A stretch of 64,000 nt of DNA, taken from Candidatus Dojkabacteria bacterium (lineage in GTDB: Bacteria; Patescibacteriota; Dojkabacteria; JAOAGR01). The notes beneath the pieces were generated by a model. The model had not been told where the DNA came from and did not search any database. It was given only the letters and a program-made list of their open reading frames with translations. This document shows positions 27,284 to 64,000 of the stretch, piece by piece; the stretch's first letter is position 1, and every line of letters starts with the position of its first letter. Position numbers and translations under genes: made by a program. The stretch is taken from the NCBI GenBank assembly GCA_026415655.1, contig JAOAGR010000002.1, positions 5-64,004 on the forward strand, in the 5' to 3' direction.

Positions 27284-27359
27284 GTCGAGGTAGCTCAGTT
27301 GGTAGAGCGAGGGACTGAAAATCCCTGCGTCGCGGGTTCAAGTCCCGCCCTTGACACCA
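27284..27359 (+). tRNA. tRNA-Phe (anticodon GAA), encoded CCA
   Basis: gtcgagg acceptor / D-arm gctcagttggtagagc / anticodon stem aggga-ctGAAaa-tccct / T-arm gcggg-ttcaagt-cccgc / ccttgac-a-cca. Confidence 0.88.
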
Positions 27360-27372
27360 ATTTTATTTGTTT

Positions 27373-27449
27373 GAGTGCTTAGCTCAGCTGGCTAGAGCAT
27401 CTCGTTTACACCGAGAAGGTCGGGGGTTCAAGTCCCTCAGCACTCACCA
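27373..27449 (+). tRNA. tRNA-Val (anticodon TAC), encoded CCA
   Basis: gagtgct acceptor / D-arm agctcagctggctagagc / anticodon stem tctcg-ttTACac-cgaga / T-arm ggggg-ttcaagt-ccctc / agcactc-a-cca. Confidence 0.85.
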
Positions 27450-38491: not shown

Positions 38492-40024
38492 GTGTATAGT
38501 AAAGTATATAGTGCTATTGCTTATGGTTTGTCTGCTCAGCTTGTTAGTATAGAAGTTGATATAATTTCTTCACAGCTGCCGGGTTTTTCTATTGTAGGTT
38601 TACCAGATAAATCTGTGCAAGAATCAAAAGACAGAGTTATATCTGCAATAAAGAATTCTGGATTTGATTTTCCAAGAAAGAAAATCGTTATAAATTTGGC
38701 TCCTGCTGATAAGCTAAAAGTTGGTGCCTTTTATGATTTGCCGATAGCGATTTCTATATTGAAAGCAACAAATCAAATAGATACATTGATTGATCTTGAT
38801 AAACTAATATTTTTGGGTGAACTTTCTTTGGATGGTACTTTACGTGCAACGGATGGGGTATTACCAATAAGTCTTCACTTAAGAGAATTAGGTGATTTTG
38901 ATGGTATAGTCTTGCCATATGATTCTGCGAACGAAGCAGCGATTGTTAAGACACATAATGTATATGGTTTTAAACATATAAAAGATCTGATAGAAGCAAT
39001 AAATAGTAACGAATTAAACAATTATAAGCATATATACAGAGAAGATGAGGAAGAACAGAATTACCAATATCTTTTTGAACATATTGTAGGACAAGAAGAA
39101 ATGAAGAGAGCTTGCCTTATAGGAGTTGCGGGAAATCATAATATGTTATTTGTTGGTAGTCCAGGAGCGGGTAAAACAATGGTTGCTAAGTGCATACCTT
39201 CGATCTTACCCGAGATGAGTGAAGATGAAATGATTGAAGTAACTAAAATTTATTCTTCTGCTGGACTTTTGGAAAATAAATCTTTGATTAAGAAAAGACC
39301 TTTTCGATCACCTCATCACACTTCTTCTGTTGTTTCTATTATTGGTGGTGGACGTATACCAAGGCCTGGTGAGTTGACACTTGCACACCGTGGTGTTTTG
39401 TTTTTTGACGAACTTACTGAGTTTCCTGTCTCAGCTATAGAAGCTTTACGACAACCATTAGAAGATAGATGTGTGACAATTTCTCGAGTTAATGCTACGT
39501 TTAAGTTTCCTGCTAACTTTATTTTTGTTGGAGCGATGAATCCTTGTAAATGCGGATGGTATGGGGATGCCGAAAGACAATGTACATGTTCGTCAGTTGA
39601 GATAGAAAGGCATAGAAAAAAAATATCCGGACCTATTATGGATAGAATTGACCTGCAGGTATGGGTACGTAGAGTACCCACACAGACTATAGCTTCATCC
39701 CAAAATAATATAAATACTAAATACACCTCTGCAAATATGCTTGATACTGTACGACGTGTTAGAAAAATGCAATTGGAAAGATATAATAAAGAAAACTTCA
39801 CAACAAATTCAGAGATACCAAGTAGTAAAGTAGACAAATACTGTAAAATGAATGATGATGCTAAAAGTATTTTGTTAAACTTTATGAATAAAAATAATTT
39901 GTCTATGCGTTCATATTTCAAAATTTTGAAAGTTGCTTTGACTATAAATATGATAGAAAATAGAGGAGAGGTTATAAATAAAGAATCTGTCCTAGAAGCT
40001 ATAAAATATAGAATAACTATATGA
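38492..40024 (+). CDS. YifB/ComM-family Mg-chelatase-like AAA+ ATPase
   Basis: 510 aa; N-terminal Lon-protease-like ribosomal-S5-domain-2-type fold, Walker A GSPGAGKT, C-terminal ChlI-like region. Confidence 0.88.
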   Translation: MYSKVYSAIAYGLSAQLVSIEVDIISSQLPGFSIVGLPDKSVQESKDRVISAIKNSGFDFPRKKIVINLAPADKLKVGAFYDLPIAISILKATNQIDTLIDLDKLIFLGELSLDGTLRATDGVLPISLHLRELGDFDGIVLPYDSANEAAIVKTHNVYGFKHIKDLIEAINSNELNNYKHIYREDEEEQNYQYLFEHIVGQEEMKRACLIGVAGNHNMLFVGSPGAGKTMVAKCIPSILPEMSEDEMIEVTKIYSSAGLLENKSLIKKRPFRSPHHTSSVVSIIGGGRIPRPGELTLAHRGVLFFDELTEFPVSAIEALRQPLEDRCVTISRVNATFKFPANFIFVGAMNPCKCGWYGDAERQCTCSSVEIERHRKKISGPIMDRIDLQVWVRRVPTQTIASSQNNINTKYTSANMLDTVRRVRKMQLERYNKENFTTNSEIPSSKVDKYCKMNDDAKSILLNFMNKNNLSMRSYFKILKVALTINMIENRGEVINKESVLEAIKYRITI

Positions 40025-42915
40025 AGCTTAAAAATAGAAAAACAAAACAGGATCATAATTTGATATCTAAATGGCTAGATTTAGTTTCCAAAAGAAATAA
40101 AGTTTTGAATAGAAATATTGGAAGAATAAGACTATCGAATACTAAAGATGCCAATAGAAAGATATTAAAAAGAAAAATATTAAATATATTGGGTAAATTT
40201 ATGATTTTTTTCACGGTATTTCTTCTATTAGGTTTACTTTTTGTTGTATTGGGTGTTTTGACTATAATCAGCGCATATTCTAGGGACTTGCCAGATGTTG
40301 ATCAGTATCTGGCTAATATAAATAAAACCCTAGGTAAAGAAACTATTATTGTTGATCGTAATGGTACAGAGGTTTATCGACTAAGAGGTGATATTGTTTC
40401 AGAAAGGTTTACTTTAGATGAAGCGCCACCGCTTTTACAGTGGGCTTTTAAAGCTGCCGAGGATAAATATTTTGATGATCATAATGGATTAGATGTTTTT
40501 GGATTATCCCGAGCTTTGCTGTGTATAGGAGAGAATTATTTAAATGGAAAAAGAAGTTATGACGGATGCCCTGGCGGTAGTACGATCACACAACAGTTAA
40601 TTAAAAATGTTACAGGTAACAATGCGACAACTGTTCAGCGCAAGGTGCAGGAAGCGGTACTTGCCATGAATCTAGAGAACGAATTCGGATCTGAAGGAAA
40701 AGATAAGATTTTAGAATACTATATGAATATTGTTTCTATGGGTGGTGTCTATACTGGTGCTAAAGTTGGTGCTAAAAATTTATTTGGCAAAGAGATGAAA
40801 GATTTAACTCTAGCGGAGATGTGTTTTATAGCAGGTATTCCTCAAAGGCCTAATGTTTTATCGCCGCGTGGTAGTGGATATAACATAGATGCATCAAAGA
40901 GTAGAGCAAAGTACGTTCTAAATAATTTATATGAAATTCGAGATAAAGTAAAAAAATATACAGGAGTGGAACTGACAGATGATTTATATAACCTGACATT
41001 GCAAGAGATAGAAAATATTCAGTTTCAACCGGATAAAAAAATTGACATCAAGGCACCTCACTATGTAAACACCGCTCTTGAAGATATAGAAGAGAAAAAG
41101 ATATTTGCTGATAGGTCTCCTAATGGTTCAAGTATCAATTTTTTGAAGAGTGCAGGTTATAAAATCGTTTTAGCCTTGGATTTACCCACACAAGATTTAT
41201 TGCAAAAATACATATATGAGGGAGTTTCAAATAAAGAATTCCAGGATGCAACATATGCCCAAAATGCAGCAGGTGTGATAATGGATCCAAATACTGGTGA
41301 GGTTTTAGCAATGGTTGGGTCCAAAGATTTTTTCGCTAAGAGTGATGACAAAAGATTTGCGCCCGAATTTAATGCAGCAACTGCTTATAGACAACCAGGA
41401 TCATCATTGAAGCCAATTTTATATGGAGCTATGTTTACAAAAGGATTTAATCCTAGTTCTGTATTGCCTGATATACCAATGAATCTCTCAGGAAATAGAA
41501 ATGCTTCAGGCATTTGGCCATACAACTATAATCGTAGATTCGGTTCATACACTGATACTGTAAATACTGGTAAGGCGGATTTTATTAGTGTCAGACATGC
41601 TCTCAAATTTTCTTTGAACATGCCTGCTGCCGCTGCTTATCATATTGCTGGTAGCGATACAATGGTCGATTTGTATACTAAACTTTCAGGAAACCCAGTT
41701 GCGGGAGCAAACTTTGGTAATCCTTCCTCGGTTATTGGCGCTGCCTCTGTACGTGTAATTGATCAGGCACAAGCGTATTCCACAATTGCTGCAGGTGGCA
41801 TTTATAGAGAGAAGAAATATATTTTAGAAATATATGATGATAAAGGTAATCTAGTTTATGATAATAAGGAAGTTGTTGATAAAAGAGTATTGGATGAAAG
41901 ATACGCGTTCTTAATCAATGATATATCAAAAGAGCCCATACATCTTTCAAGACCATTTTATGTACAGCTAAGAAATGAAGGTATAGACTTCAGATCTAAA
42001 ACTGGTACATCTGATGGAGAAAAAGGACCTCCAGATATTTATATTTATGGTTATACACCGGATCGCACTATCGTTTTGTGGGGTGGAAATAGTTGTTCTG
42101 GCTATGAATGTCCACTAAAGCCAACAGCTCTTTCTGATCATTTAAATAGATATATCCTTGAACCCTTTTTAGCTGCTTATAAGGATAAGCTTGGAAAAAG
42201 AAAATTTACACCACCAAGTGGAGTTACAAAAGTATCGTTATGTTCTTTGACCGGTAATAGTATGAGTGATGATTGTCTATTAGCCGGAGGAAAAGAGGTA
42301 CAAGATTTTGTTGTCGGTAAGGCACGGGATGAATATATGATAGATGTTGCTATGGTAGTGCCATGTCCTGTCGATTATAAATTAGCTCGTGAAGTGGATA
42401 TGAATCTAGGAATCGCAGAAAAGAAAGGTTATGTTAATTTCCATAAAATGTTTCCACAAAAATTCATTTCGGATCAAATTTTATCCTACTTACAATCTAA
42501 GGGTATGGTCAAACCAGATCAAGAATGTGATATAGAACGAACTATTAATCCAACACAGATAAATATTATCAGCCCGACTGCAAATTCTACATTTACAAAG
42601 GGAACTAGTATTAATGTGAATTACACTATTACTTCCGATATACCTCTGCAAAAAAAAGAATTATTTATAAATTCTGTTCTTTATCAGAATCTTGATAATC
42701 TTTCTGGAACTGTAGAAATATCTACAGCTGATTTGCCCCTTGGTAGTAATACGATCACTATTGTTGTTACCGAGAAGGATGGCAAGGAGGTGGAAAAATC
42801 AGTTAATATAGTCATACAATCTATGAGTACGCCAACACCTAGTCGCACACCTACTGCCGCTGCCATATATCAGTCTTCTCATACTTATTGGATATCTGGT
42901 ACTGTATTAGTATGA
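40021..42915 (+). CDS. class A penicillin-binding protein (GT51 transglycosylase + transpeptidase) with long C-terminal extension
   Basis: 964 aa; N-terminal TM, GT51 motifs (EDKYFDDHNGLDVFGLSRAL, GGSTITQQLIKN), transpeptidase region, extra ~180 aa C-terminal beta-rich domain and TPTPSRTPT linker. Confidence 0.88.
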   Translation: MKLKNRKTKQDHNLISKWLDLVSKRNKVLNRNIGRIRLSNTKDANRKILKRKILNILGKFMIFFTVFLLLGLLFVVLGVLTIISAYSRDLPDVDQYLANINKTLGKETIIVDRNGTEVYRLRGDIVSERFTLDEAPPLLQWAFKAAEDKYFDDHNGLDVFGLSRALLCIGENYLNGKRSYDGCPGGSTITQQLIKNVTGNNATTVQRKVQEAVLAMNLENEFGSEGKDKILEYYMNIVSMGGVYTGAKVGAKNLFGKEMKDLTLAEMCFIAGIPQRPNVLSPRGSGYNIDASKSRAKYVLNNLYEIRDKVKKYTGVELTDDLYNLTLQEIENIQFQPDKKIDIKAPHYVNTALEDIEEKKIFADRSPNGSSINFLKSAGYKIVLALDLPTQDLLQKYIYEGVSNKEFQDATYAQNAAGVIMDPNTGEVLAMVGSKDFFAKSDDKRFAPEFNAATAYRQPGSSLKPILYGAMFTKGFNPSSVLPDIPMNLSGNRNASGIWPYNYNRRFGSYTDTVNTGKADFISVRHALKFSLNMPAAAAYHIAGSDTMVDLYTKLSGNPVAGANFGNPSSVIGAASVRVIDQAQAYSTIAAGGIYREKKYILEIYDDKGNLVYDNKEVVDKRVLDERYAFLINDISKEPIHLSRPFYVQLRNEGIDFRSKTGTSDGEKGPPDIYIYGYTPDRTIVLWGGNSCSGYECPLKPTALSDHLNRYILEPFLAAYKDKLGKRKFTPPSGVTKVSLCSLTGNSMSDDCLLAGGKEVQDFVVGKARDEYMIDVAMVVPCPVDYKLAREVDMNLGIAEKKGYVNFHKMFPQKFISDQILSYLQSKGMVKPDQECDIERTINPTQINIISPTANSTFTKGTSINVNYTITSDIPLQKKELFINSVLYQNLDNLSGTVEISTADLPLGSNTITIVVTEKDGKEVEKSVNIVIQSMSTPTPSRTPTAAAIYQSSHTYWISGTVLV

Positions 42916-42936: not shown

Positions 42937-43887
42937 ATGCTAAAAGAGATAGACATCGAAGAATATAAAAAAAAATCAAGTCCTAAAACCTTTTTGCAAG
43001 AATATTATTGGGCTCAATTAAAATCATTGTATGGTTATCAAGTTAGATTTTTTGAGTATATACCTGGTGATAAATATCAAAGTAATTTTTATTTTTTCTG
43101 TCTAATAAAATATAAATTTGGATTTAGTGTAGCTTATGTACCAAGAGTTGCTAATATATTTACAAATAAGGATCAAATTCAAAGATTTATAGATTGTATA
43201 AAGAATAAGTTTTTTGTTACACTAATAGAATTTGATAACTTGCCAGATGCTTGTATGAAATATCTTGATTTTTCTAAAAAAGATATACAGCCGTCAACAA
43301 CCTTTATTACTCCGATTGACAAAGACTTTGACATAAGTTCAATAAAAAACAAAGTCGCACGAAAAAATATTAGAAAATCAACTGAAAATGCGGAAAAGTT
43401 TGGATGGAGATTTGAAGTAAACAAAAAACTTAACGACAAAGATCTTAATATGTTTTATAAGCATTATCTTAATATGACAACTTTAAAAGGTTACAATAAG
43501 AGAGAAATAGAATATTTTCAAAGACTGCAGGAGATTATAGATGAGAGTATTTGGTATGTTTTATATGATCATGAAAATAAACTGATTATGGCAAATTATG
43601 CAATTCTTCATGAAAAAACAAAAACAAATTACTTGTTATACGTGGCAAGAGATATGAATCTTGATAAGTATGAAATATCCTATTTTCTTATGTATCAAAT
43701 TTTTTTATATCTAAGAGATATTGGTTATCAATATTGTGACCACTGGGGATATGATCTGAAAGATCCTCGAAAATATGGTTATAGCAAATTTAAGGAACAG
43801 TTTGGTGGAATAGTAAAAAACTATCCCAAACCAATAGTTGTTGGTAAAGTTGATATATTAAGTAAATTCTTATCTATCCTAACGTGA
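42937..43887 (+). CDS. FemAB-family peptidyltransferase (peptidoglycan interpeptide-bridge formation)
   Basis: 316 aa; N-terminal FLQEYYWAQLK motif resembling FemX/FemAB FLQSxEW, and double GNAT-like size. Confidence 0.55.
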   Translation: MLKEIDIEEYKKKSSPKTFLQEYYWAQLKSLYGYQVRFFEYIPGDKYQSNFYFFCLIKYKFGFSVAYVPRVANIFTNKDQIQRFIDCIKNKFFVTLIEFDNLPDACMKYLDFSKKDIQPSTTFITPIDKDFDISSIKNKVARKNIRKSTENAEKFGWRFEVNKKLNDKDLNMFYKHYLNMTTLKGYNKREIEYFQRLQEIIDESIWYVLYDHENKLIMANYAILHEKTKTNYLLYVARDMNLDKYEISYFLMYQIFLYLRDIGYQYCDHWGYDLKDPRKYGYSKFKEQFGGIVKNYPKPIVVGKVDILSKFLSILT

Positions 43888-53539: not shown

Positions 53540-56365
53540 ATGAAAAATTTTATCTTGATTAAAAAACTTAAAAGTAATCTTGTTAATGCCGAAATATTTT
53601 TATATCAGCATGTAGCTACAGGGGCATATATACTTTGGCTAAAAAATGATGAGAAAGAATATTCTTTTCATATTGGATTTCATACTCCGCCGTATTCTAA
53701 TAATGGTGTTGCTCATGTCTTAGAACACATGGTACTCGCGGGTAGTAAAAAATATCCGGATGATAAGATATTTGAAAAAGTTTCAAACAAAACTTTAGCG
53801 ACATCGTTAAATGCTTATACATCTGCTAACCACACTGTCTATCACTTCGCCACTGCAAACAAAAAAGATTATGAAAATCTGTTGGACTTCTATTTATCCT
53901 CAGTTTTTGAACCTTTACTGACATATGAAGTTTTTTTACGCGAGGGAATTAATTTACATTCTTATAGAGATGGAGAAATAGGAGGCATTGTTTTTAATGA
54001 GATGAAAGGTGCATATCTGGATCCGGATACATATGTATATAATCATTGTAAAACCTTTTTGCTAGAAGGTACGCCTTTATGTTTTCATTCTGGTGGATAT
54101 CCATTAGATATTCTAGATCTTGATTATAACGAAGTCATTGATTTTTATAACAAATATTATCATCCGTCAAACTCTTTCACGGTAATTTGTGGTGATTTGG
54201 AAATTGGAAAAGTTTTGAAAGTACTAGATCAATGTTATAGTAGGTTTCAGTCGATCAAATATGATGATAATTTAGCTTTTGACAATAGTTCCATTCATCA
54301 CCATCCAAAAGATAAATATTTAACTTTTGAAATGCCTAGTCAATCAGAGGATGAGCACGCAACCTTAGTTTATAATTTTGTTGATTTTAACTTAAGTATA
54401 GAAGAAAAAACTTTACAAAGTGCACTTTTTAATTATTTGTTAAACTATACTGCAAGTCCCTTAGTCACACAGATTCTCGATACTCAACTGTCAGCTAATA
54501 TCAATTCAAGTTTTATTAATTATGGTAAAATAAGTACCTATTCTTGGATATTTAGTAAGGTAGAAGAGAGCACATTTTCAGCTTTAGAAAATAAGTTTTT
54601 TAATATCATTCGTGACATACAAAATCTGCAATATGATCAGGTTAGTCCGTTTTTAGAGAATCAAGAATTTCAGCTAAAAGTTCAAAGTAATGCTTCATCT
54701 TATGCAGATATTATTCTACGAAATTATTTTTTAAAAAATATTTCGCTAGAAGAATGTATTAATCTGGATTTGAATTTAACTCTTTTTGAAAAGACACGCA
54801 TTGCCATAAAGACAAATAATGAACTTTTCAAGTTATTAAAAGCAAAATTTTCAAATCTAAATAATTTTAATTCAAAATTACTTTACTTGCCAAATAAAAA
54901 TTTTGCACAAAAGGTAGATACTGAAATAAATCAGAAGTTAGTCAATTTATCCAAATCGAATACAGAACCTAAAGGAGCAGAACATAAATATTCTGATAAT
55001 GTAGATTATCCTTTAATCAAGCGAAAGTATTTAAGATCGAATATTCAAGACATTGTTGATCAAAGAGAATATATTGATGGTCGTAAGTATATAACTACAA
55101 ATTCTGCTTTTATTGATGTTATAGAGATAAGGATATTCTTTGATACTGAGGATTTCACAATAGATGAGTTAAGGGCATTATCATTTTTATACGGTACATT
55201 AGTAAAAAGCCCGACAAAGAAATATTCAGCAGAAGAAGTTAGTGCTCTTTTGTATCAATATTTTGGGTATTTTAATATATACGAAGTTCTTAATAATAAC
55301 CATAAAACGGGTCAGGAGATAATCGGTCAAGTACTATATTTTTCCTGTTTAGAAAGAAATCTAGATGAGGTCTTAGATATACTGACGGAAGTACTTTTAA
55401 ATAGCCAGTTGGATTTTGAGAAATTTAGTTCTGTAATTAACTCGAATCTAGACTATTTTGAACAGGATGTTGTTTATTCAGGTACTAGGTATATGATTTT
55501 AGAAACAACATCTTCTATATCCAGTGCTTTAAGTATTCGTAATGATTTGCAGGGGATACCGATGTTGGTTTTCTTGCGCAAAACATACAAATCCGAACAA
55601 AAACTAGAATTATTTTTTGAAACATTGAAATCGGCTTATAAAAAGCTTTTTGATAGAAATCGTATTAAATTAGTGGGAATTGGCGCAAAATCAGATTATG
55701 AAATTATAAGGAAAAAAATTGAACTTTTTATCTCAAATTTGAGAAATTCTAATAATTTTGATTCGATAGACAAACAAGATCATCAAATAGAGAATGTTGT
55801 TTATGCAACAAACACTTCTGTATCATATACAAGTGCTCTGTATGAAACAAAATCACAAAATAGAGGAGAGCTTTTTTTTATATCCAATTTTTTAAATACA
55901 GATTATGCGACACAAAAAATTAGATTAGAAAATAACGCGTATGGGGGATATTGTTATGTCACATTCTTTCCACCTGATAGAGTATATATAATATCTGCTA
56001 GTTATAGGGATCCTGATCCACGGAGGACACTTGATATATTCAACGATTTACCGGGTTACTTGAAGAATTTAAGGTTCAAACGAAAGACTATTAATGATTA
56101 TCTTTTAGTAGCCATTAATTACGTAGATCCATATATTAGCTTGCGTGACAGACCATATATAGGATTCATGAATGAACTAAAAGAGTTTGATTATAATGAT
56201 ATTAATAGAATAAAAAACGAAGTATTAGAAGCAACCCAGAGTTCGATAAATGAACAAATAGAAATATTATCTAATATTCAAATGTGTAAATTTAGCATTT
56301 TGACCAATAAATCTGTTGCTGATGTATTAAAGAATAGAAATAATACGAAATTAGTGAAAATATGA
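53540..56365 (+). CDS. M16 family zinc metallopeptidase, PreP-like (inverted HxxEH motif)
   Basis: 941 aa; HVLEHMVLAGSKKYP (HxxEH) near N-terminus; four-domain length typical of presequence-protease-like M16C enzymes. Confidence 0.85.
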   Translation: MKNFILIKKLKSNLVNAEIFLYQHVATGAYILWLKNDEKEYSFHIGFHTPPYSNNGVAHVLEHMVLAGSKKYPDDKIFEKVSNKTLATSLNAYTSANHTVYHFATANKKDYENLLDFYLSSVFEPLLTYEVFLREGINLHSYRDGEIGGIVFNEMKGAYLDPDTYVYNHCKTFLLEGTPLCFHSGGYPLDILDLDYNEVIDFYNKYYHPSNSFTVICGDLEIGKVLKVLDQCYSRFQSIKYDDNLAFDNSSIHHHPKDKYLTFEMPSQSEDEHATLVYNFVDFNLSIEEKTLQSALFNYLLNYTASPLVTQILDTQLSANINSSFINYGKISTYSWIFSKVEESTFSALENKFFNIIRDIQNLQYDQVSPFLENQEFQLKVQSNASSYADIILRNYFLKNISLEECINLDLNLTLFEKTRIAIKTNNELFKLLKAKFSNLNNFNSKLLYLPNKNFAQKVDTEINQKLVNLSKSNTEPKGAEHKYSDNVDYPLIKRKYLRSNIQDIVDQREYIDGRKYITTNSAFIDVIEIRIFFDTEDFTIDELRALSFLYGTLVKSPTKKYSAEEVSALLYQYFGYFNIYEVLNNNHKTGQEIIGQVLYFSCLERNLDEVLDILTEVLLNSQLDFEKFSSVINSNLDYFEQDVVYSGTRYMILETTSSISSALSIRNDLQGIPMLVFLRKTYKSEQKLELFFETLKSAYKKLFDRNRIKLVGIGAKSDYEIIRKKIELFISNLRNSNNFDSIDKQDHQIENVVYATNTSVSYTSALYETKSQNRGELFFISNFLNTDYATQKIRLENNAYGGYCYVTFFPPDRVYIISASYRDPDPRRTLDIFNDLPGYLKNLRFKRKTINDYLLVAINYVDPYISLRDRPYIGFMNELKEFDYNDINRIKNEVLEATQSSINEQIEILSNIQMCKFSILTNKSVADVLKNRNNTKLVKI

Positions 56366-56922
56366 ATCAGAATTTAAAATCTCCGGTTATCCTGGCTTTT
56401 GATTATGGTACCAAAAGGATTGGAGTAGCTGTTACAAGTGATGATGGTAAATATGTTAAACCATTAGATGTTATAAAAAATAATTTTGACATTATTGATG
56501 TTGAAATAGAAAATTTGAAAAAGAATTCTAGCGAGCCAAAAGATAAACAAATAAAATTATTAAAAAAACAAAAAGAAAAAAAATTACACATCTTTTTGAA
56601 TAAGGTGTTTGAGTTGGTAAGCAGGTATTATCCAGATGTTATATTAATTGGTATGCCTTCTACAGTTGATAAAGTATATAAGAAAAAGATCCTTAAGTTT
56701 GCTAATGAGATAAAAAAATTTTTGAATAAGAAAAAAGTTCTATTAGATATACAAATAATAAATGAGGATCTAACATCACATGATGGATTAAAAGAATTAA
56801 ATATGCTTGGATTTACAAAGAAAAATATAGATGATCTGATTGATAGTTATTCGGCAATGTATATAATCAAAACATATAACGATAAATATGCGTATGATAT
56901 TAGTAAAGAGACAGATAAATAA
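56362..56922 (+). CDS. ruvX: YqgF/RuvX-like putative pre-16S rRNA nuclease / Holliday-junction-resolvase-like protein (with insertion)
   Basis: 186 aa; N-terminal VILAFDYGTKRIGVAVTSDDG RNase-H-like motif. Confidence 0.75.
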   Translation: MNQNLKSPVILAFDYGTKRIGVAVTSDDGKYVKPLDVIKNNFDIIDVEIENLKKNSSEPKDKQIKLLKKQKEKKLHIFLNKVFELVSRYYPDVILIGMPSTVDKVYKKKILKFANEIKKFLNKKKVLLDIQIINEDLTSHDGLKELNMLGFTKKNIDDLIDSYSAMYIIKTYNDKYAYDISKETDK

Positions 56923-59451: not shown

Positions 59452-60153
59452 TTGCTAGAATCCTCTAGCATGACATTATATTTTTTAGAAAATATAGAAC
59501 TTGTAATATTATTATTACTTTTAACATCTCTTGTTACGACTGTATTTCGCAATATTATTGGAATAAAGACTTTGAATATTTATATAGTATTAATTTATGC
59601 TGTAATTTTTGTGTCTAATGCGTACTACATCTTTTTTGTAAATACAGAGTTTGATTATTGGATAATTCTATTTTCTTTGTTACATATTTTCTTAATATTT
59701 ATTTTGCATTACATTACTCTCATTTTTTATAAAAAAATAGTGTCTGGATTAAATATTCATTATTATGCAAAAGTTTCTCTGGCAACGACCTCTTTCCTAT
59801 TATTAGTATATGGTATCTCTATGATATTCAATTTGACAGATCTATATACGAATAGATCCAAATTAGCACTAGTATTAACTATTTTATTGCTTTCATTTAC
59901 TCTAGAACCATTATCATCTTTACTTATGCAGAAAGGATTAAAAACTTTTAATGAAATATACAAAAATACACTTTTTGGATGTTTAATCATATCGATAATC
60001 ATTATTTTATTTATTACATACCTACATAATATGTTGAATATTTGGTTATTTTTTATATTTGCATTATTAATAATTATCTATTTAGGAAAGTTTGCAGGAC
60101 TAAGATTAACCGAGATATATAGATTTAGAGAGATTATCAAAAAAAATGATTAA
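59452..60153 (+). CDS. small polytopic (6-7 TM) membrane protein, partner of the downstream ATP-grasp/protease fusion
   Basis: 233 aa almost entirely hydrophobic helices; stop 4 nt before next gene. Confidence 0.55.
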   Translation: MLESSSMTLYFLENIELVILLLLLTSLVTTVFRNIIGIKTLNIYIVLIYAVIFVSNAYYIFFVNTEFDYWIILFSLLHIFLIFILHYITLIFYKKIVSGLNIHYYAKVSLATTSFLLLVYGISMIFNLTDLYTNRSKLALVLTILLLSFTLEPLSSLLMQKGLKTFNEIYKNTLFGCLIISIIIILFITYLHNMLNIWLFFIFALLIIIYLGKFAGLRLTEIYRFREIIKKND

Positions 60154-60156
60154 ATT

Positions 60157-61578
60157 ATGTTTTTTTTATCAAGACTCAAAACAATTCTTGGTATTAATGA
60201 GAGAAATTTGAAATATATTAGGCCATATAATCCTGTCAAATATAGAAAATATGCTGATAACAAATTATTAACAAAAAAAATTTTATTAAAAAATAATATT
60301 CCTACTCCAAAATTGATTGCTATTATAAAAGACTATGAGCGACTTGAAAAATTTAATTTTAATAAATTGCCAGATAGTATTGTTGTAAAACCACAAAAAG
60401 GATTTGGTGGAGAGGGAATATTAATCTTTTTTTCAAACGATAAGTATGGAAATTGGCTCAAAGCTGATAAAACAAGATATTCTATTGAAGATTTAAAAAA
60501 ACATATAAGAAACATATTAGATGGTAACTTTTCTCTTAAAAATGAACCCGATATTGCATTTTTCGAAGAAAGAGTAATGCTACATCCTGATCTTAAAAAA
60601 TATGCATCCAGAGGAATGCCTGATATACGTGTTATTGTTTTTAATCAGGTACCTATTATGGCACAGCTGCGATTGCCTACTTTTGAATGTGATGGAAAAG
60701 CCAATTTGCATGCTGGTGGAGTCGGGGTTGGCATAGATCTCACAAGCGGTGTTACTACAACTGCTGTGCATAAAGACAGAGTCATTGAATATCATCCTGA
60801 TAATAATTTACCTTTGCGAGGAATAGCTATTCCTTATTGGAATAAAATTTTAGAATTGGCAGTGAAGGCTCAGACCGTTTCTAAATTAGGTTTTGTTGGA
60901 GTTGATATCGTATTAGATCGTTTAAAGGGGCCTATGGTTTTAGAAATCAATGCACGACCGGGATTAGCGATCCAGATAGCAAATCAAGATGGAGTGAAAG
61001 ATAGACTGGAACGTATTGTGGGATTAAAAATTAAGAATCCGAGTCATGGTATAAAAGTAGGAAAAAATCTTTTTGGTGGAGAAATAGAAGAGGAGATTGA
61101 ACAATTTTCAGGAAAGAAAATTATCGGTTATGTTGAATATATTTATCTTTATGGAAGAAACGAAGAAAAAATAAAAATAAAATGTAAAAATGACACAGGT
61201 GCTTTTTATTCATCGATAGATGAAGATCTCGCTTCTATTCTTGGTTACAAAGAGGCAATTGTAGAATTTAAACAATTTATTAAAGATCACAACTTAACTG
61301 ATCTCAAAACTGCAAAAAAAATCAAAATCATTTGTGCTAAATTTTTTGAAGAGCATCCTGAAATACAGGATATTGCGTTGATCAAGCAGAGTAATGGCTT
61401 TGAAATACGCCCGATTATACGTTTGAAATTTGAATTAAATGATGTTGTCAAAGTCACAGATTTTACAGTAACGTCTAGAAAAAAGACTTCATTAATATAT
61501 AAAGCAATTCTTGGTCGTAAAGCGTTAAGAAAAAACTTTATCATAATACCAGCCGGAAAATTTAAATCTATCAAATAA
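60157..61578 (+). CDS. fusion protein: RimK-like (alpha-L-glutamate-ligase-related) ATP-grasp amidoligase + C-terminal retropepsin-like aspartyl protease domain
   Basis: 473 aa; N-terminal ~300 aa ATP-grasp (IVVKPQKGFGGEGI ... LEINARPG); C-terminal KIIGYVEYIYLYGRNEEKIKIKCKNDTGAFYSSIDEDLA (DTGA) ... LIYKAILGRKAL resembles the retropepsin-like domain annotated 'putative ATP-dependent zinc protease' found next to RimK-like ligases. Confidence 0.65.
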   Translation: MFFLSRLKTILGINERNLKYIRPYNPVKYRKYADNKLLTKKILLKNNIPTPKLIAIIKDYERLEKFNFNKLPDSIVVKPQKGFGGEGILIFFSNDKYGNWLKADKTRYSIEDLKKHIRNILDGNFSLKNEPDIAFFEERVMLHPDLKKYASRGMPDIRVIVFNQVPIMAQLRLPTFECDGKANLHAGGVGVGIDLTSGVTTTAVHKDRVIEYHPDNNLPLRGIAIPYWNKILELAVKAQTVSKLGFVGVDIVLDRLKGPMVLEINARPGLAIQIANQDGVKDRLERIVGLKIKNPSHGIKVGKNLFGGEIEEEIEQFSGKKIIGYVEYIYLYGRNEEKIKIKCKNDTGAFYSSIDEDLASILGYKEAIVEFKQFIKDHNLTDLKTAKKIKIICAKFFEEHPEIQDIALIKQSNGFEIRPIIRLKFELNDVVKVTDFTVTSRKKTSLIYKAILGRKALRKNFIIIPAGKFKSIK

Positions 61579-61620: not shown

Positions 61621-62628
61621 ATGAGATATTTGATGAGGAAATTTCATTTTTTTTTATTTTTAATTTTTATCTTCGTATTAATTAATGTTTTACTTAATCA
61701 GTTAAATAATGACGCCATTGCGTTATCAATATCAGGATCTAATATAAATACCCAAAATATACCAGTAAATACAAACACTTCACTAAGTGTTGTAATAAAT
61801 CCAAATCAAAATATAACATCGACAGATAATATTAAATTGACTCTTGGAGGATTAATAAATAATGTTGTTTTTGATTCATCAAATGTGCAGATATTAGGAT
61901 GTTCGGGTACTCCCTTAATCATTTCCTCGCCTATTAATACAATGCAACCCAATCTGATAGTTAGTGGAATCAATTGTCCCATAAATGGAAGTATTACTAC
62001 CAATTTAAGTAATAACTCATTAAATTCTGTAAGCATTCCTGGAGTATATTTGATTCAGGTATTTATAAATGGTGCTCTATACGATACATATACAATATCT
62101 GTTGGAGGTGATAATTCTGTGGTCATCTCTGGACAAATTAATTATAGATTAAGATTTCGTGTTTATCCAGAAAAAAGGACACCATCGTTTGGAAATTTCT
62201 CGAATGTTTATTTACTTCAGATCATAAATCCAATTACTAATACAATTGTCTATCAGAAATCTGGTATAGTAGCTGATAATAACGGTGAATTTGAAGAATT
62301 TATACCATCCCAATACCTACCACATGGAATATACAAAGTACGTATAAAAGGTATTTCACATCTATCAAAAGATTTTAATAATGTACAAATTAAAAATAAT
62401 ACTAACTTTTATAATTTTACGTCTGGAGGAAATTTTCTATTAGCGGGTGATACTTCTGTTATAGAAGATGATTTGATTAATTCTTTAGACATTAGTAGGT
62501 TGGAGAAAACACTGTTTACAAATATATTGAGAAGTGACCTTAATAAGGATGGGTACGTAAATTCGCTTGACATGTCAATACAGGCTTATAATATCAATAA
62601 ATATAATATTTATGGCGAATCCTTGTAA
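61621..62628 (+). CDS. secreted protein with C-terminal dockerin-like (Ca-binding, EF-hand-like) module
   Basis: 335 aa; N-terminal signal peptide; beta-rich Asn/Ser/Thr-rich body; C-terminal ...GDTSVIEDDLINSLDISRLEKTLFTNILRSDLNKDGYVNSLDMSIQAYNI with DLNKDGYVNSLD matching the dockerin Ca-binding loop. Confidence 0.55.
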   Translation: MRYLMRKFHFFLFLIFIFVLINVLLNQLNNDAIALSISGSNINTQNIPVNTNTSLSVVINPNQNITSTDNIKLTLGGLINNVVFDSSNVQILGCSGTPLIISSPINTMQPNLIVSGINCPINGSITTNLSNNSLNSVSIPGVYLIQVFINGALYDTYTISVGGDNSVVISGQINYRLRFRVYPEKRTPSFGNFSNVYLLQIINPITNTIVYQKSGIVADNNGEFEEFIPSQYLPHGIYKVRIKGISHLSKDFNNVQIKNNTNFYNFTSGGNFLLAGDTSVIEDDLINSLDISRLEKTLFTNILRSDLNKDGYVNSLDMSIQAYNINKYNIYGESL

Positions 62629-64000
62629 TAAAAATTTAAGTATTATTTTACTTTTTAGTATCTTTATTATTTTTGTACTTTTTTTGAGTTTAAATTTCAG
62701 GATTTATGCTCTTACGAAAAATGGACAGTTTTATTTTGAAAATGATGTGTATGAAGTACCTCAAAATTGTGAGTATCCTCTTAAGCTGATAGTGGATCCG
62801 GGATCAAATCTAAGCAATGCTGCAGATGTTATATTAAAGTACAATCCAAATGATATTGAGATTATAGATAGTATTCAAAATGTTCCAGGAAAACAGATAC
62901 AGCCGGGAAATGCATATGAATATTATCCTTCAACAGGTAATATTGTGGACGAAACCAGTGGTACAATAAGACTTGTTGGTGTTTCTTATGACAAAATCCT
63001 TGACAAAAAAGGAGTTTTCACCATTATCAAAATCAAATTGAAGTCTAATACTGCAAATATAAATATTGTATTTGATGGGATTGATAAGACGACAGATAGT
63101 AATATTGCCGAATATAATTCGAGTATAGATATTCTTTCACAAGTAAAAAGCGTACAATTGAAAAAATCTAATAGCGCATCTTGTCCGCAAGAAGACGTTG
63201 TTCCACCAAATATATTGGTAAATTCTAGTTATGTACAGATGAAAAATGGTGGTAAGTTGGTATTTATTGTCTCTGATAATCTGTCTGGTATAAATCTAAA
63301 TTCATTAAAAGTTGTTGTAGGAGATAAAGTTTATGATTATGGATCGAACAGTATTGGTATTATTCCAGTAAGTAATGGATACCAGATAGAGTTGGTACTT
63401 GATGATATATCTTTTGATAGTGACTTTATATCATTTAGTATTATAGTTTCTGATAAAGCCGGAAATGTAAACAGTGTTAATACTAATTTAACAGAGGCAA
63501 AACAGAACATGACAGAATGTAACTGTCCTAGTATACAAAACAACGCAGACAACGATTTAGACGAGGATAAAAGTGACCTCTATATCGCGCAAAATCAATA
63601 TCGCAACTTAAATGAACAAATTTTTGGATTTTTACCACAAAATTTATCATTTGTATCAGATGCCGGATTTATTGCCCCATTTACTCTTGCCATAACCTTA
63701 CCGCTTCTATATTTTATTTCGGCGTTAGTTTCTTCATTTTTGAGCGGCGGATTTTTGGTTCCATTTTTATTGAGCCTTTTTCGTAGGAAAGGAAATATTA
63801 AAGTACTGGATTCTATTTCTAAAGAAGGTATCCCTTTTGTTAAAGTAAAAGTTTATCAGAGAGGTTATGATAAAGTTATAAAACAATATGTTACATCACC
63901 TTTTGGTTCATTTGATTTTGACCTTTATGATGGATTTTATACATTAGAATTGGAAAAACGTGGATACCAGAATCTTAGATACGAACTTAATCATACTGAT
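62612..64000 (+). CDS. membrane-anchored protein with N-terminal cohesin-like domain (partial, runs off contig end; not in ORF track)
   Basis: Hand translation from ATG 62612, open to 64000 (463 codons, in frame with ATG 63509): MANPCNKNLSIILLFSIFIIFVLFLSLNFRIYA (signal/anchor) ... ADVILKYNPNDIEIIDSIQNVPGKQIQPG ... SGTIRLVGVSYDKILDKKGVFTIIKIKLKSNTANINIVF resembling cohesin motifs; later a double TM segment and a beta-sandwich-like YQRGYDKVIKQY region. Confidence 0.5.
   Translation, partial: MANPCNKNLSIILLFSIFIIFVLFLSLNFRIYALTKNGQFYFENDVYEVPQNCEYPLKLIVDPGSNLSNAADVILKYNPNDIEIIDSIQNVPGKQIQPGNAYEYYPSTGNIVDETSGTIRLVGVSYDKILDKKGVFTIIKIKLKSNTANINIVFDGIDKTTDSNIAEYNSSIDILSQVKSVQLKKSNSASCPQEDVVPPNILVNSSYVQMKNGGKLVFIVSDNLSGINLNSLKVVVGDKVYDYGSNSIGIIPVSNGYQIELVLDDISFDSDFISFSIIVSDKAGNVNSVNTNLTEAKQNMTECNCPSIQNNADNDLDEDKSDLYIAQNQYRNLNEQIFGFLPQNLSFVSDAGFIAPFTLAITLPLLYFISALVSSFLSGGFLVPFLLSLFRRKGNIKVLDSISKEGIPFVKVKVYQRGYDKVIKQYVTSPFGSFDFDLYDGFYTLELEKRGYQNLRYELNHTD

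Follow-up and report, generated by a model that had tools for sequence, protein, structure and literature searches.

A likely compact, two-gene variant of the RloABC-type system, with a fused ATP-grasp ligase and retropepsin-like protease, in CPR bacteria

Within the 64,000-nucleotide stretch of a Candidatus Dojkabacteria genome that was analysed here (the window), a gene for a small membrane protein (mini-RloB) is followed directly by a gene whose 473-aa product joins an RloC-type ATP-grasp ligase to a retropepsin-like aspartic protease. On balance, we favour the view that this pair is a compact two-gene variant of the RloABC-type system, newly recognised in the CPR (Patescibacteria). The function that we infer as the most likely one is that of a membrane-docked ligase for an acidic (poly-Glu-like) peptide, with a trimming protease built in. 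Judged from the alignments, the catalytic residues of the ligase and protease domains alike are intact.

RloABC of Pseudomonas is an operon that was characterised genetically and structurally (mBio 2025; PMC12239564); RloA is a secreted retropepsin-like protease, RloB combines a 7TM domain with an inactive transglutaminase domain, and RloC is an ATP-grasp protein (PMC12239564). In Pseudomonas, loss of all three proteases is lethal, but no longer so when rloB or rloC is deleted as well (PMC12239564), which shows that the ligase and the 7TM protein make there what the protease removes. In P. aeruginosa, Rlo influences survival under hypo-osmotic conditions, the shape of the cells, their sensitivity to beta-lactams and the formation of biofilm; RloB was described in the mBio paper as 96% proteobacterial (PMC12239564). 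Poly-Glu is cleaved by both RloA and RimB, and RimK is stimulated by RimB. An earlier, sequence-only reading of the window had treated the ligase, protease and membrane protein as a comparative-genomics prediction; it named the right families, but these were already characterised as RloABC in Pseudomonas (PMC12239564).

Results

The features of the module are collected in Table 1. The first ORF (59452-60153, plus strand) is open for 233 aa from a TTG. Its real start is probably the ATG at 59470, because the identical database protein (P0121) has 227 aa. The two ORFs, both on the plus strand, are separated by a gap of 3 nt, and the motifs quoted in the sequence-only reading are all present in the sequence, with GINERN at residues 12-17, VVKPQKG at 76-82 and EINARPG at 263-269 of the 473-aa protein. 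A protein identical to the latter is named in NCBI 'RimK/LysX family protein [Candidatus Dojkabacteria bacterium]'. An AlphaFold2 model of the fusion as a monomer has a mean pLDDT of 88.3; since a fold search with the whole 473-aa protein returned ATP-grasp matches only, the protease domain was modelled on its own, likewise as a monomer (pLDDT 90.9). A scan for promoters and terminators between 56.8 and 62.8 kb yielded fewer sites than shuffled sequence, and is thus uninformative on operon structure; Rfam and tRNA scans gave no matches within or near the module.

Table 1. Coordinates of the module and its parts in the window
Feature	Coordinates	Strand	Remarks
mini-RloB, ~7-TM membrane protein, 227 aa	59470..60153	+	ORF also open from TTG at 59452
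473-aa RloC-type ATP-grasp ligase::retropepsin-like aspartic protease	60157..61578	+	ATG start
ATP-grasp ligase domain, PF14397/TIGR02291 (RloC) type, residues ~1-290	60157..61026	+	
Acidic amphipathic linker helix LFGGEIEEEIEQFSG, residues 305-319	61069..61113	+	translation, conservation
Retropepsin-like aspartic protease domain, residues ~323-473, PF05618/RimB-like	61123..61575	+	
Catalytic motif D346-T-G-A, residues 346-349	61192..61203	+	translation
L-G-R-K-A-L, residues 452-457, retropepsin-type 'I-I-G-R' helix motif	61510..61527	+	

The ligase domain is matched by PF14397 over residues 16-287 (E=1.4e-71; 241.4 bits, gathering cutoff 31.4). By far its best NCBIfam match is TIGR02291 (E=1.9e-79, 267 bits, below the equivalog cutoff of 314.2), as against 61.3 bits (E 9e-17; cutoff 143.4) for the RimK family TIGR00768 and 22.6 bits (cutoff 331) for the S6-glutamate ligase PRK10446. 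This agrees with its earlier placement in the alpha-L-glutamate-ligase-related branch of RimK-like ATP-grasp enzymes. It is 40% identical over 283 aa (E=1e-70) to its counterpart in a canonical Legionella operon. K78, D250, E263, N265 and R267 are invariant, and neither the catalytic nor the ATP/Mg residues vary among 120 homologues. The top Foldseek matches are ArgX/LysX, cyanophycin synthetase and RimK. From HMM coordinates against Ddl and MptN models, the usual N-terminal pre-ATP-grasp domain of about 95 residues appears to be absent; canonical ATP-grasp models are already at position ~95-100 where this protein is at residue ~30, and in place of that domain it has a short helical stretch in which N14 and R16 are invariant.

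The protease domain begins after residue ~322, at the C-terminus of the ATP-dependent ligase, and scores 29.5 bits with PF05618 (gathering cutoff 27). Profile searches matched it to RloA (9g58) and RloA2 (9g59) at E~1e-6 and also to 2pma; Foldseek placed the DUF785 structure 2pma, RloA2 9g59 and RloA 9g58 at the top, followed by the foamy-virus and HIV-1 proteases and Ddi1. In the alignments, D346-T-G-A falls on the DTGA motifs of RloA, of RloA2 and of the protease from Legionella, and L-G-R-K-A-L on LIGSEAL of RloA and LLGRQAI of the Legionella protease (E=2e-6 in the direct comparison with the last, with the DTGA and GR motifs in register). In 120 homologues, down to ~48% identity, D346, G348 and A349 are invariant and the intervening residue is T or S; G453 is likewise invariant in the 120, and R454 is R or K. 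Four RloA residues are reported to coordinate poly-Glu, K46, R114 and R137 among them (PMC11957051). By the alignment with 9g58, these three correspond to K344 (K or R in the family), R418 and R441 (both invariant), and the region of the fourth contact, R92, is replaced by a helical insert. The domain carries a two-helix insert at about residues 356-396. It has no signal peptide and no conserved cysteines (in 67 of 84 homologues the domain is Cys-free), and thus seems to act in the cytoplasm and not in the periplasm. The RloA3 equivalog model gave 34.9 bits (cutoff 210) and the RimB equivalog NF052261 25.6 bits (cutoff 200); like that of TIGR02291, these scores lie below the NCBIfam cutoffs and do not establish functional equivalence.

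Between the two domains, shortly before a protease that has poly-Glu-cleaving relatives, lies a Glu-rich helix. Its FGG[ED] motif was found in 116 of 120 fused CPR proteins, in none of 49 unfused ligases and in none of 71 7TM-fused RloC-type ligases. In the sequences compared, the acidic helix is thus conserved in, and exclusive to, the ligase::protease fused form.

The membrane protein, in which the sequence-only reading had counted six to seven helices, has about seven TM segments on checking, with an N-out/C-in topology predicted from hydropathy and charge distribution. The copy in the window scores 17.9 bits with PF14402, below the gathering cutoff of 25, and all seven syntenic 7TM homologues match this profile (best E=2e-28). 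By hhalign, the profile of the 7TM family aligns with residues 309-507 of the 508-aa RloB-type protein of Legionella (probability 98%, E=2.8e-13), and with Pfam profiles the inactive transglutaminase domain PF14400 was not found on the 227-aa protein or its syntenic homologues. On these profile comparisons, mini-RloB is homologous only to the C-terminal 7TM domain of the RloB-type 'inactive transglutaminase' proteins. Its conserved features are an FRxxxGIK motif in loop 1, a Glu in TM5 that is invariant, and a cytosolic tail rich in basic residues (GKxxGLRLTExxRFR). Exhaustive phmmer with the 7TM protein found 30 relatives, the 26 of which that aligned over most of the length have 200-258 aa, and a word-index search found only two proteins; a single query sequence does not suffice for so divergent a family, and synteny and profile methods were needed.

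Relatives of the fusion were found at no fewer than 560 species-representative loci (at least 560), and the best 80 of these cover both the ligase and the protease domain. Since the fused frame recurs in independent assemblies and in hundreds of species, it is not the product of two genes merged by sequencing error. The fusion is characteristic of many CPR lineages and is not peculiar to the Dojkabacteria genome of the window. In 83 of 84 loci, the fusion gene is preceded by the 7TM gene in the same orientation. Conservation of a three-gene block, which the sequence-only reading had proposed to check, holds for the 7TM/fusion pair (83/84) but not for the upstream ADP-forming acetyl-CoA synthetase, which was rejected as a member; it occurs in the flanks of only 4/84 loci, all Dojkabacteria-like, and at one locus (L005) has the reverse orientation. 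A dockerin-like secreted protein encoded downstream, which adjoins the pair in no sampled locus, was also rejected, and an anti-phage defence system was dropped as a reading, as PADLOC models gave no match to the module.

In Parcubacteria-type loci, PBP1a comes after the pair in 52 of 84, and extra RimK-like ligases do so in 40 of 84; at one locus (L003), a gap of 1 nt after the pair is followed by MurL, MurD and more Mur ligases. The neighbours in Dojkabacteria-type loci are other than PBP1a, which in the window is 17 kb from the module. The rpsF gene is absent from the window.

In short, the main structural claims of the sequence-only reading held, at scores and levels of conservation well above what chance would give. 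Its retropepsin-like C-terminal domain is confirmed by the top structural matches (2pma, 9g59 and 9g58) and by a PF05618 score above the cutoff, and the Asp of DTGA, which it took to be catalytic, is in register with the catalytic DTG of the solved RloA structures. The union of ligase and protease in one polypeptide is repeated across independent assemblies, and the expected lack of a transglutaminase domain fits the match to residues 309-507 of the 508-aa RloB-type protein. None of the outcomes which that reading had named as contrary to it was found on testing.

Discussion

As the canonical RloABC comparator, a plasmid locus of Legionella adelaidensis (L086) was used, in which the genes encode PF05618, PF14400+PF14402 and PF14397 proteins, with PF14400 at residues 25-178 of the RloB-type protein. 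The CPR module shares with RloABC a PF05618 protease with a DTG(A) motif, a PF14402 7TM protein, a PF14397/TIGR02291 ligase and adjacent, co-directional genes, and it has kept the active-site motifs of the protease and three poly-Glu-contacting basic residues. However, ligase and protease form one polypeptide in the CPR and separate proteins in RloABC; the extracytoplasmic transglutaminase-like domain of RloB (PF14400, ~300 aa) is missing; and the acidic linker helix and the two-helix insert in the protease are additions of the CPR form. The protease of Pseudomonas, of a type with an N-terminal signal peptide and a conserved disulfide, is secreted and periplasmic, whereas that of the CPR is cytoplasmic, which implies a logic unlike that of Pseudomonas, where the protease works in the periplasm.

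Two further systems join parts of this machinery differently. In the RimBK hybrid of Desulfotalea psychrophila (DP2392; J Biol Chem 2025; PMC11957791), as in RimB/RimK, a PF05618 protease is coupled covalently or physically to a ligase of the RimK superfamily, both are cytoplasmic, and the protease trims poly-Glu tails and modulates the ligase; RimB-RimK hybrids are proteolytically active (PMC11957791). The protease of RimBK is N-terminal to a canonical RimK and has no 7TM partner, whereas that of the CPR is C-terminal to an RloC-type ligase without a pre-ATP-grasp domain, in a fusion paired with a 7TM protein. RimBK is found mainly in Flavobacteriales and Rhodobacterales. Because domain order, ligase family and hosts all differ, the CPR fusion represents an independent event. 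Haloarchaea have a recurrent fusion of a 7TM domain to an RloC-type ligase (71 clusters; for example, plasmid locus L088 of Halobacterium sp. DL1, and others in Haloarcula, Natronorubrum and elsewhere). It consists of PF14402 and PF14397 parts as in the CPR, but here the membrane domain is the fusion partner, and the polypeptide has neither a protease domain nor the acidic linker. This arrangement shows that the 7TM domain and the ligase operate physically as one, and that the C-terminus of the 7TM domain faces the side of the membrane where ATP is.

With HIV-1 PR, foamy virus PR and Ddi1 of clan AA, the CPR protease domain shares the fold, the D-T/S-G-A and G-R helix motifs and, by expectation, an obligate homodimer with one Asp per chain. 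It differs in its low identity (~12-15%), in its extra helical hairpin, in a substrate channel that is basic by homology with RloA where the retroviral-type channel is hydrophobic, and in its location at the C-terminus of a metabolic ligase instead of inside a viral polyprotein.

The most likely mechanism can be outlined as follows. The basic C-terminal tail of the N-out/C-in 7TM protein would dock the ligase to the membrane from the cytoplasm. There, at the expense of ATP, the ligase would make or lengthen an acidic peptide, which could be free or attached to an acceptor and is most likely an alpha-linked oligo- or poly-glutamate; that poly-Glu is the product is suggested by the relatives of the protease and its three conserved basic residues only. 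As the ligase has no acceptor-binding N-domain of its own, the 7TM partner may present the acceptor or be the route by which it is presented. The protease domains of two paired fusion chains would form the obligatory retropepsin dimer, which would cut the acidic chains on the cytoplasmic side and thereby limit or release the product; the protease may also stimulate the ligase, as in RimB/RimK. The fusion-specific acidic helix probably contacts the positively charged channel of the protease or the 7TM tail. In haloarchaea, the counterpart of the basic 7TM tail is covalently joined to the N-terminus of the ligase. The physiological role is probably in envelope or osmotic homeostasis, as for Pseudomonas Rlo.

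The Glu-rich helix (FGG-E-I-E-E-E-I-E) might also be a built-in pro-segment or self-cleavage site, in an enzyme resembling a miniature retroviral polyprotein, although we consider this unlikely. If it were so, the acidic linker would tether the protease or keep it inactive for as long as the enzyme had not dimerised at the membrane. Thereafter, the protease would excise itself, or the growing poly-acidic product would compete away the inhibition, and the chain length of an exported envelope peptide would be set by a self-timed ruler.

The reading nearest to a membrane-docked acidic-peptide ligase is a cell-wall or envelope-polymer amidoligase, which would add one or more amino acids to a peptidoglycan precursor, a lipid-linked intermediate or a surface glycopolymer handled by the 7TM protein, with the protease trimming or recycling the added peptide and poly-Glu not being the product. 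The Pfam title of PF14397 ('sugar-transfer associated ATP-grasp'), the missing acceptor-binding N-domain, the cell-shape and beta-lactam phenotypes of Rlo mutants and the overproduction of membrane vesicles by an RloB-type mutant are all in keeping with it. So is the presence of PBP1a, extra RimK-like ligases and (L003) Mur ligases beside the pair; however, the PBP1a synteny is largely that of one broad lineage with a fixed YebC-RuvC-...-PBP1a order and may reflect descent, and in the window, PBP1a is 17 kb off, while Dojkabacteria-type neighbours differ. The protease also retains the basic residues that bind poly-Glu in RloA. We hold this reading to be rather unlikely; it shares its physiology with the acidic-peptide ligase and differs on the acceptor alone.

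A cytoplasmic, RimBK-like cycle of polyglutamylation and deglutamylation of S6 (RpsF), in which the 7TM protein would be merely a regulator, accords with the RimB-like location of the protease, with the existence of proteolytically active RimB-RimK hybrids and with the presence of RimK among the best structural matches of the N-domain. It is nevertheless very unlikely, because the ligase scores 267 bits with TIGR02291 and only 61.3 and 22.6 with the RimK family and PRK10446 (both below their cutoffs), lacks the RimK N-terminal domain and is fused in the order opposite to that of RimBK, and because the PF14402 partner present in 83/84 loci is a feature of Rlo and not of Rim. The combination of a ligase, a protease and a membrane protein is also the typical gene set of a RiPP or graspetide-like cassette, in which an ATP-grasp macrocyclase, a leader protease and a membrane exporter act on a ribosomal precursor peptide, and PsnB and the RiPP-associated ATP-grasp ligase 7mgv were among the lower Foldseek matches (E~3e-8). 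Yet the intergenic gaps are of 3-42 nt and all small ORFs are nested in large genes, which leaves a precursor gene no space; in the loci sampled, the pair is accompanied by no conserved small ORF; by sequence and by fold, the best matches are ligases that extend amino acids or peptides and not macrocyclases; and the module stands among housekeeping genes in tiny genomes. We thus regard such a cassette as extremely improbable.

Conclusions

The three Rlo components reach well beyond the Proteobacteria; they occur in fused, minimal form in hundreds of CPR species with genomes of ~1 Mb, and haloarchaea carry the same components fused in another way. The database names 'RimK/LysX family protein', 'ATP-dependent zinc protease' and 'sugar-transfer associated ATP-grasp' are corrected accordingly. 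With two proteins, one of which unites ligase and protease, the CPR system should also be easier to reconstitute than the operon of Pseudomonas, where three proteases are redundant. That all three parts act as one membrane-associated machine is supported by 'Rosetta-stone' evidence from two fusions of independent origin (7TM::ligase and ligase::protease), and the location of the protease in the CPR cytoplasm constrains models of how the product is synthesised and where it is cleaved. Its retention in genomes reduced to this extent speaks for a role of the module in core physiology.

Ligase and protease domains in a single protein

Both ORFs claimed by the sequence-only reading were found in the AT-rich window (GC ~30%), one for a 7TM protein and one for a fusion of ligase and protease (see the table). 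The 7TM ORF probably starts at the ATG at 59470, because the identical database protein has 227 aa. The NCBI entry identical to the 473-aa protein belongs to a Candidatus Dojkabacteria MAG and is annotated as 'RimK/LysX family protein'. All of the motifs quoted in that reading are present in the fusion (residues 12-17, 76-82, 263-269, 346-349 and 452-457). Its observation is thus confirmed and its interpretation supported; all outcomes that it had named as counting against it were looked for, and none was found.

Features of the window and of a haloarchaeal plasmid locus
Feature	Position	Strand	Remarks
tRNA-Leu(taa)	1498-1583
tRNA-Phe(gaa)	27284-27359
tRNA-Val(tac)	27373-27449
PBP1a-type bifunctional peptidoglycan synthase	40021-42915		phmmer E=5e-70 to CPR PBP1a
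316-aa protein after PBP1a	42937-43884		weak FemAB-family match (PF02388, 26.3 bits; gathering cutoff 24)
M16 PreP-like peptidase, 941 aa	53540-56365		upstream of the module
RuvX	56362-56922		4-nt overlap with the peptidase gene
ADP-forming acetyl-CoA synthetase-type protein, 719 aa	57284-59443		ends 8-26 nt before the 7TM gene
7TM ORF	59452-60153	+	233 aa counted from TTG
Fusion ORF	60157-61578	+	473 aa from ATG; begins 3 nt past the 7TM ORF stop
Conserved Glu-rich amphipathic helix	61069-61113		between ligase and protease domains
DTGA of the fusion	61192-61203
335-aa protein	61621-62628		downstream of the module; N-terminal hydrophobic segment; sub-threshold dockerin-like C-terminus (PF00404, E=3e-4)
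>477-aa protein	62567-64000		no Pfam match; continues past the window end
7TM::ligase, Halobacterium sp. DL1	L088:3179-4930		plasmid CP007061.1; PF14402 at residues 51-243, PF14397 at 286-557

The N-terminal half was established as an ATP-grasp ligase, as had been proposed: Pfam PF14397 (ATPgrasp_ST) matches residues 16-287 (E=1.4e-71), and the nearest PDB folds to the AlphaFold2 model of the whole fusion (mean pLDDT 88.3) are the amino-acid/peptide ligases ArgX/LysX, cyanophycin synthetase and RimK. Of the NCBIfam models, TIGR02291 ('alpha-L-glutamate ligase-like protein') fits best, with E=1.9e-79 and 267 bits, which is under the equivalog cutoff of 314; RimK-family models score far below it. 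The catalytic residues are intact. K78, D250, E263, N265 and R267 of the ligase and D346, G348, A349, R418, R441 and G453 of the protease are invariant in 120 homologues (identity down to ~48%). Canonical ATP-grasp enzymes have an N-terminal pre-ATP-grasp domain that aids acceptor binding. Such a domain is probably absent from the RloC-type ligases, since residue ~30 of the fusion falls at position ~95-100 of Ddl, MptN and cyanophycin-synthetase-type models (HMM coordinates).

The C-terminal half is retropepsin-like. PF05618 (named 'Zn_protease', and RimB-like in newer Pfam) matches residues 323-461 with 29.5 bits (gathering score 27), and the new RloA3 and RimB models of NCBIfam match weakly. 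Among solved structures, the fusion family profile matched 9g58 (P. fluorescens RloA) and 9g59 (P. aeruginosa RloA2), both with E~1e-6, and 2pma (DUF785; 2e-4); a model of the domain made alone (pLDDT 90.9) ranked 2pma, RloA2 and RloA first, followed by foamy-virus protease, HIV-1 protease and Ddi1. The profile segments 'AKiDtGA' and 'iiGrkdLkkF' aligned on 'AKLDTGA' and 'LIGSEALKRF', so that the DTGA coincides with that of both RloA structures, as expected if its invariant Asp, D346, is catalytic. Of the four RloA residues reported to coordinate poly-Glu, three (K46, R114 and R137) map to K344 (K or R) and the invariant R418 and R441 when counted along the 9g58 alignment, where all four offsets fall on K or R; at the place of the fourth, the CPR domain has a two-helix insert. 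Periplasmic RloA has conserved cysteines that are missing here, and the protease domain has no Cys in 67 of 84 homologues. Because these cysteines are absent and an ATP-dependent ligase precedes it in the same chain, the protease must, by its sequence, be located in the cytoplasm.

The helix joining the halves (consensus FGG-E-[IV]-E-E-E-[ILV]-E-[ED]) was recognized in 116 of 120 fused proteins and in none of 120 relatives without protease fusion (0/49 unfused and 0/71 7TM-fused RloC-type ligases). It is thus restricted to proteins in which the protease is fused.

The membrane protein

Hydropathy and the positive-inside rule predict about seven transmembrane segments with N-out/C-in topology. 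The window copy is sub-threshold for PF14402 (17.9 bits against 25), and seven of seven syntenic homologues match it (best E=2e-28). The homologue profile aligned (98% probability) to a Legionella 'inactive transglutaminase family protein' of 508 aa, over its residues 309-507; in this protein PF14400, the transglutaminase-like part, occupies residues 25-178 and PF14402 residues 258-503. The window protein is therefore only the 7TM half of an RloB-type protein, in agreement with the earlier description of a minimal 7TM protein lacking the transglutaminase domain. Three features are conserved: FRxxxGIK in loop 1, a Glu in TM5 that is invariant and, at the C-terminus, the basic tail GKxxGLRLTExxRFR, which is also seen in the Legionella protein. 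An exhaustive phmmer search detected 30 relatives, and the 26 matching over most of the query are of 200-258 aa.

In a Candidatus Falkowbacteria locus (L022:2464-4017), the 7TM protein has 517 aa, a signal peptide and an N-terminal extracytoplasmic extension of ~290 aa with a segment that is PKD-like as judged by eye. This extension is consistent with N-out topology and shows that some CPR lineages retain an extracytoplasmic domain, one without relation to the transglutaminase-like part.

In haloarchaea, the 7TM domain is joined directly to the N-terminus of the same RloC-type ligase in a single polypeptide, an architecture found in 71 database clusters of 526-823 aa (proteins P0152-P0224). 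It speaks for the C-in orientation predicted above and for the 7TM protein and the ligase forming one physical unit. The PLSDB table lists no gene at the Halobacterium locus.

Conservation and gene neighbourhood

The fusion has matches to more than 7,800 database proteins. The first 120 of these are all ~450-530 aa long with DTGA invariant, and most have both precomputed Pfam domains. At least 560 loci in GTDB species representatives carry a relative, and the best 80 all cover both domains, so the two halves indeed form one gene. These 80 are labelled mostly Dojkabacteria, Moranbacteria, Paceibacteria, Falkowbacteria and Parcubacteria. Many loci that have the CPR fusion in its typical neighbourhood (L014, L015, L019, L020, L055, L081 and others) bear the MAG record titles 'uncultured Bdellovibrionales', 'Micavibrio', 'Bathyarchaeia archaeon' or 'Fimivivens', which look like mis-assigned taxonomy of Patescibacteria bins.

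Neighbours were counted by HMM search of the ORFs in 85 fetched loci, 84 of which have the fusion ORF at full length. In 83 of these 84, the 7TM gene is found upstream in the same orientation, as the proposed linkage to a membrane protein gene implied, and the exception is truncated by a contig end. The ADP-forming acetyl-CoA synthetase was found in only four, so the conserved unit is the two-gene pair: of the three-gene block considered earlier, the 7TM and fusion genes stand and the synthetase was rejected, the window arrangement being Dojkabacteria-specific synteny. The flanks contain RuvC in 65 loci, YebC in 51 and PBP1a in 52; in 49, PBP1a is downstream and has the same orientation. Extra RimK-like ligases are present in 40 loci (immediately downstream in 19) and Mur genes in two.

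The Parcubacteria-type gene order is YebC-RuvC-7TM-fusion, then none to two extra RimK-like ATP-grasp ligases and PBP1a (L001, L004, L013-L015 and many others; for example, L004:6430-7329 and L001:7509-10109); no extra RimK-like ligase was found within the 64-kb window. In one lineage (L003:6429-11428), the fusion gene is followed after 1 nt by MurL (glutamate-epimerase-type) and three Mur ligases, the first of them MurD-like, a second, different tie to peptidoglycan synthesis. The FemAB-like protein 17 kb upstream of the window module may be a peptidoglycan cross-bridge transferase. Neither of the two proteins downstream of the module is next to it in other genomes. The tRNAs are ordinary housekeeping content, as is an apparent EF-Tu/ribosomal-protein gene cluster on the + strand at ~10.7-26 kb, recognized by eye from the N-termini of its proteins; both are consistent with a small CPR chromosome.

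Comparison with the Rlo and Rim systems

The three families in the module are those of the Pseudomonas rloABC operon. RloA, which is secreted, is a retropepsin-like protease that forms a disulfide-stapled dimer and cuts runs of ≥8 Glu; RloB combines a 7TM part with an inactive transglutaminase domain in the periplasm, and RloC is a cytoplasmic ATP-grasp protein. Loss of all three proteases is lethal under hypo-osmotic conditions, and this lethality is suppressed when rloB or rloC is deleted (PMC11957051 / PMC12239564). According to the mBio paper, 96% of RloB matches are proteobacterial (PMC12239564). In the canonical operon on a Legionella adelaidensis plasmid (L086), the ligase is 40% identical to that of the window (E=1e-70), and the protease matches the window domain with E=2e-6 and aligned motifs; the membrane protein of this operon is the 508-aa one described above. 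This stand-alone PF05618 protease (L086:2005-2463) is annotated 'RimK/LysX family protein', with a start at the protease fold and without a signal peptide; names for the family are inconsistent among databases (RimK/LysX, ATP-dependent zinc protease, sugar-transfer associated ATP-grasp).

A protease-ligase hybrid, RimBK of Desulfotalea psychrophila, has been published, in which RimB is N-terminal to a canonical RimK; it has no membrane partner and occurs mainly in Flavobacteriales and Rhodobacterales (PMC11957791). Since the domain order is reversed and the ligase belongs to another family, the window fusion represents an independent fusion event. Our literature search yielded no paper on such a module in CPR bacteria, where it is widespread and apparently undescribed. 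Within the known Rlo type of system, it is a variant that is new in both architecture and topology.

Possible function

We propose that the 7TM protein would use its basic tail to dock the ligase on the cytoplasmic side of the membrane, where the ligase would make an acidic peptide, probably of alpha-Glu, either free or on an acceptor offered by the 7TM protein. Two fusion chains would pair into a retropepsin dimer, which would trim or release the product in the cytoplasm and may stimulate the ligase, as RimB does. The main rival keeps the same architecture and takes a cell-wall or envelope precursor as the acceptor. The Rlo phenotypes favour it, and so does the repeated presence of PBP1a, Mur and extra-ligase genes nearby; it is weakened by the restriction of this synteny to certain lineages. 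Readings of the module as a ribosomal S6 system, as a RiPP cassette or as a defence system are disfavoured.

The components of the module would not surprise a specialist. Rlo chemistry becomes easier to test directly through four findings taken together: how widely the module is conserved in minimal genomes, the cytoplasmic location of its protease, the complementary fusion in haloarchaea and the acidic helix specific to the protease-fused form.
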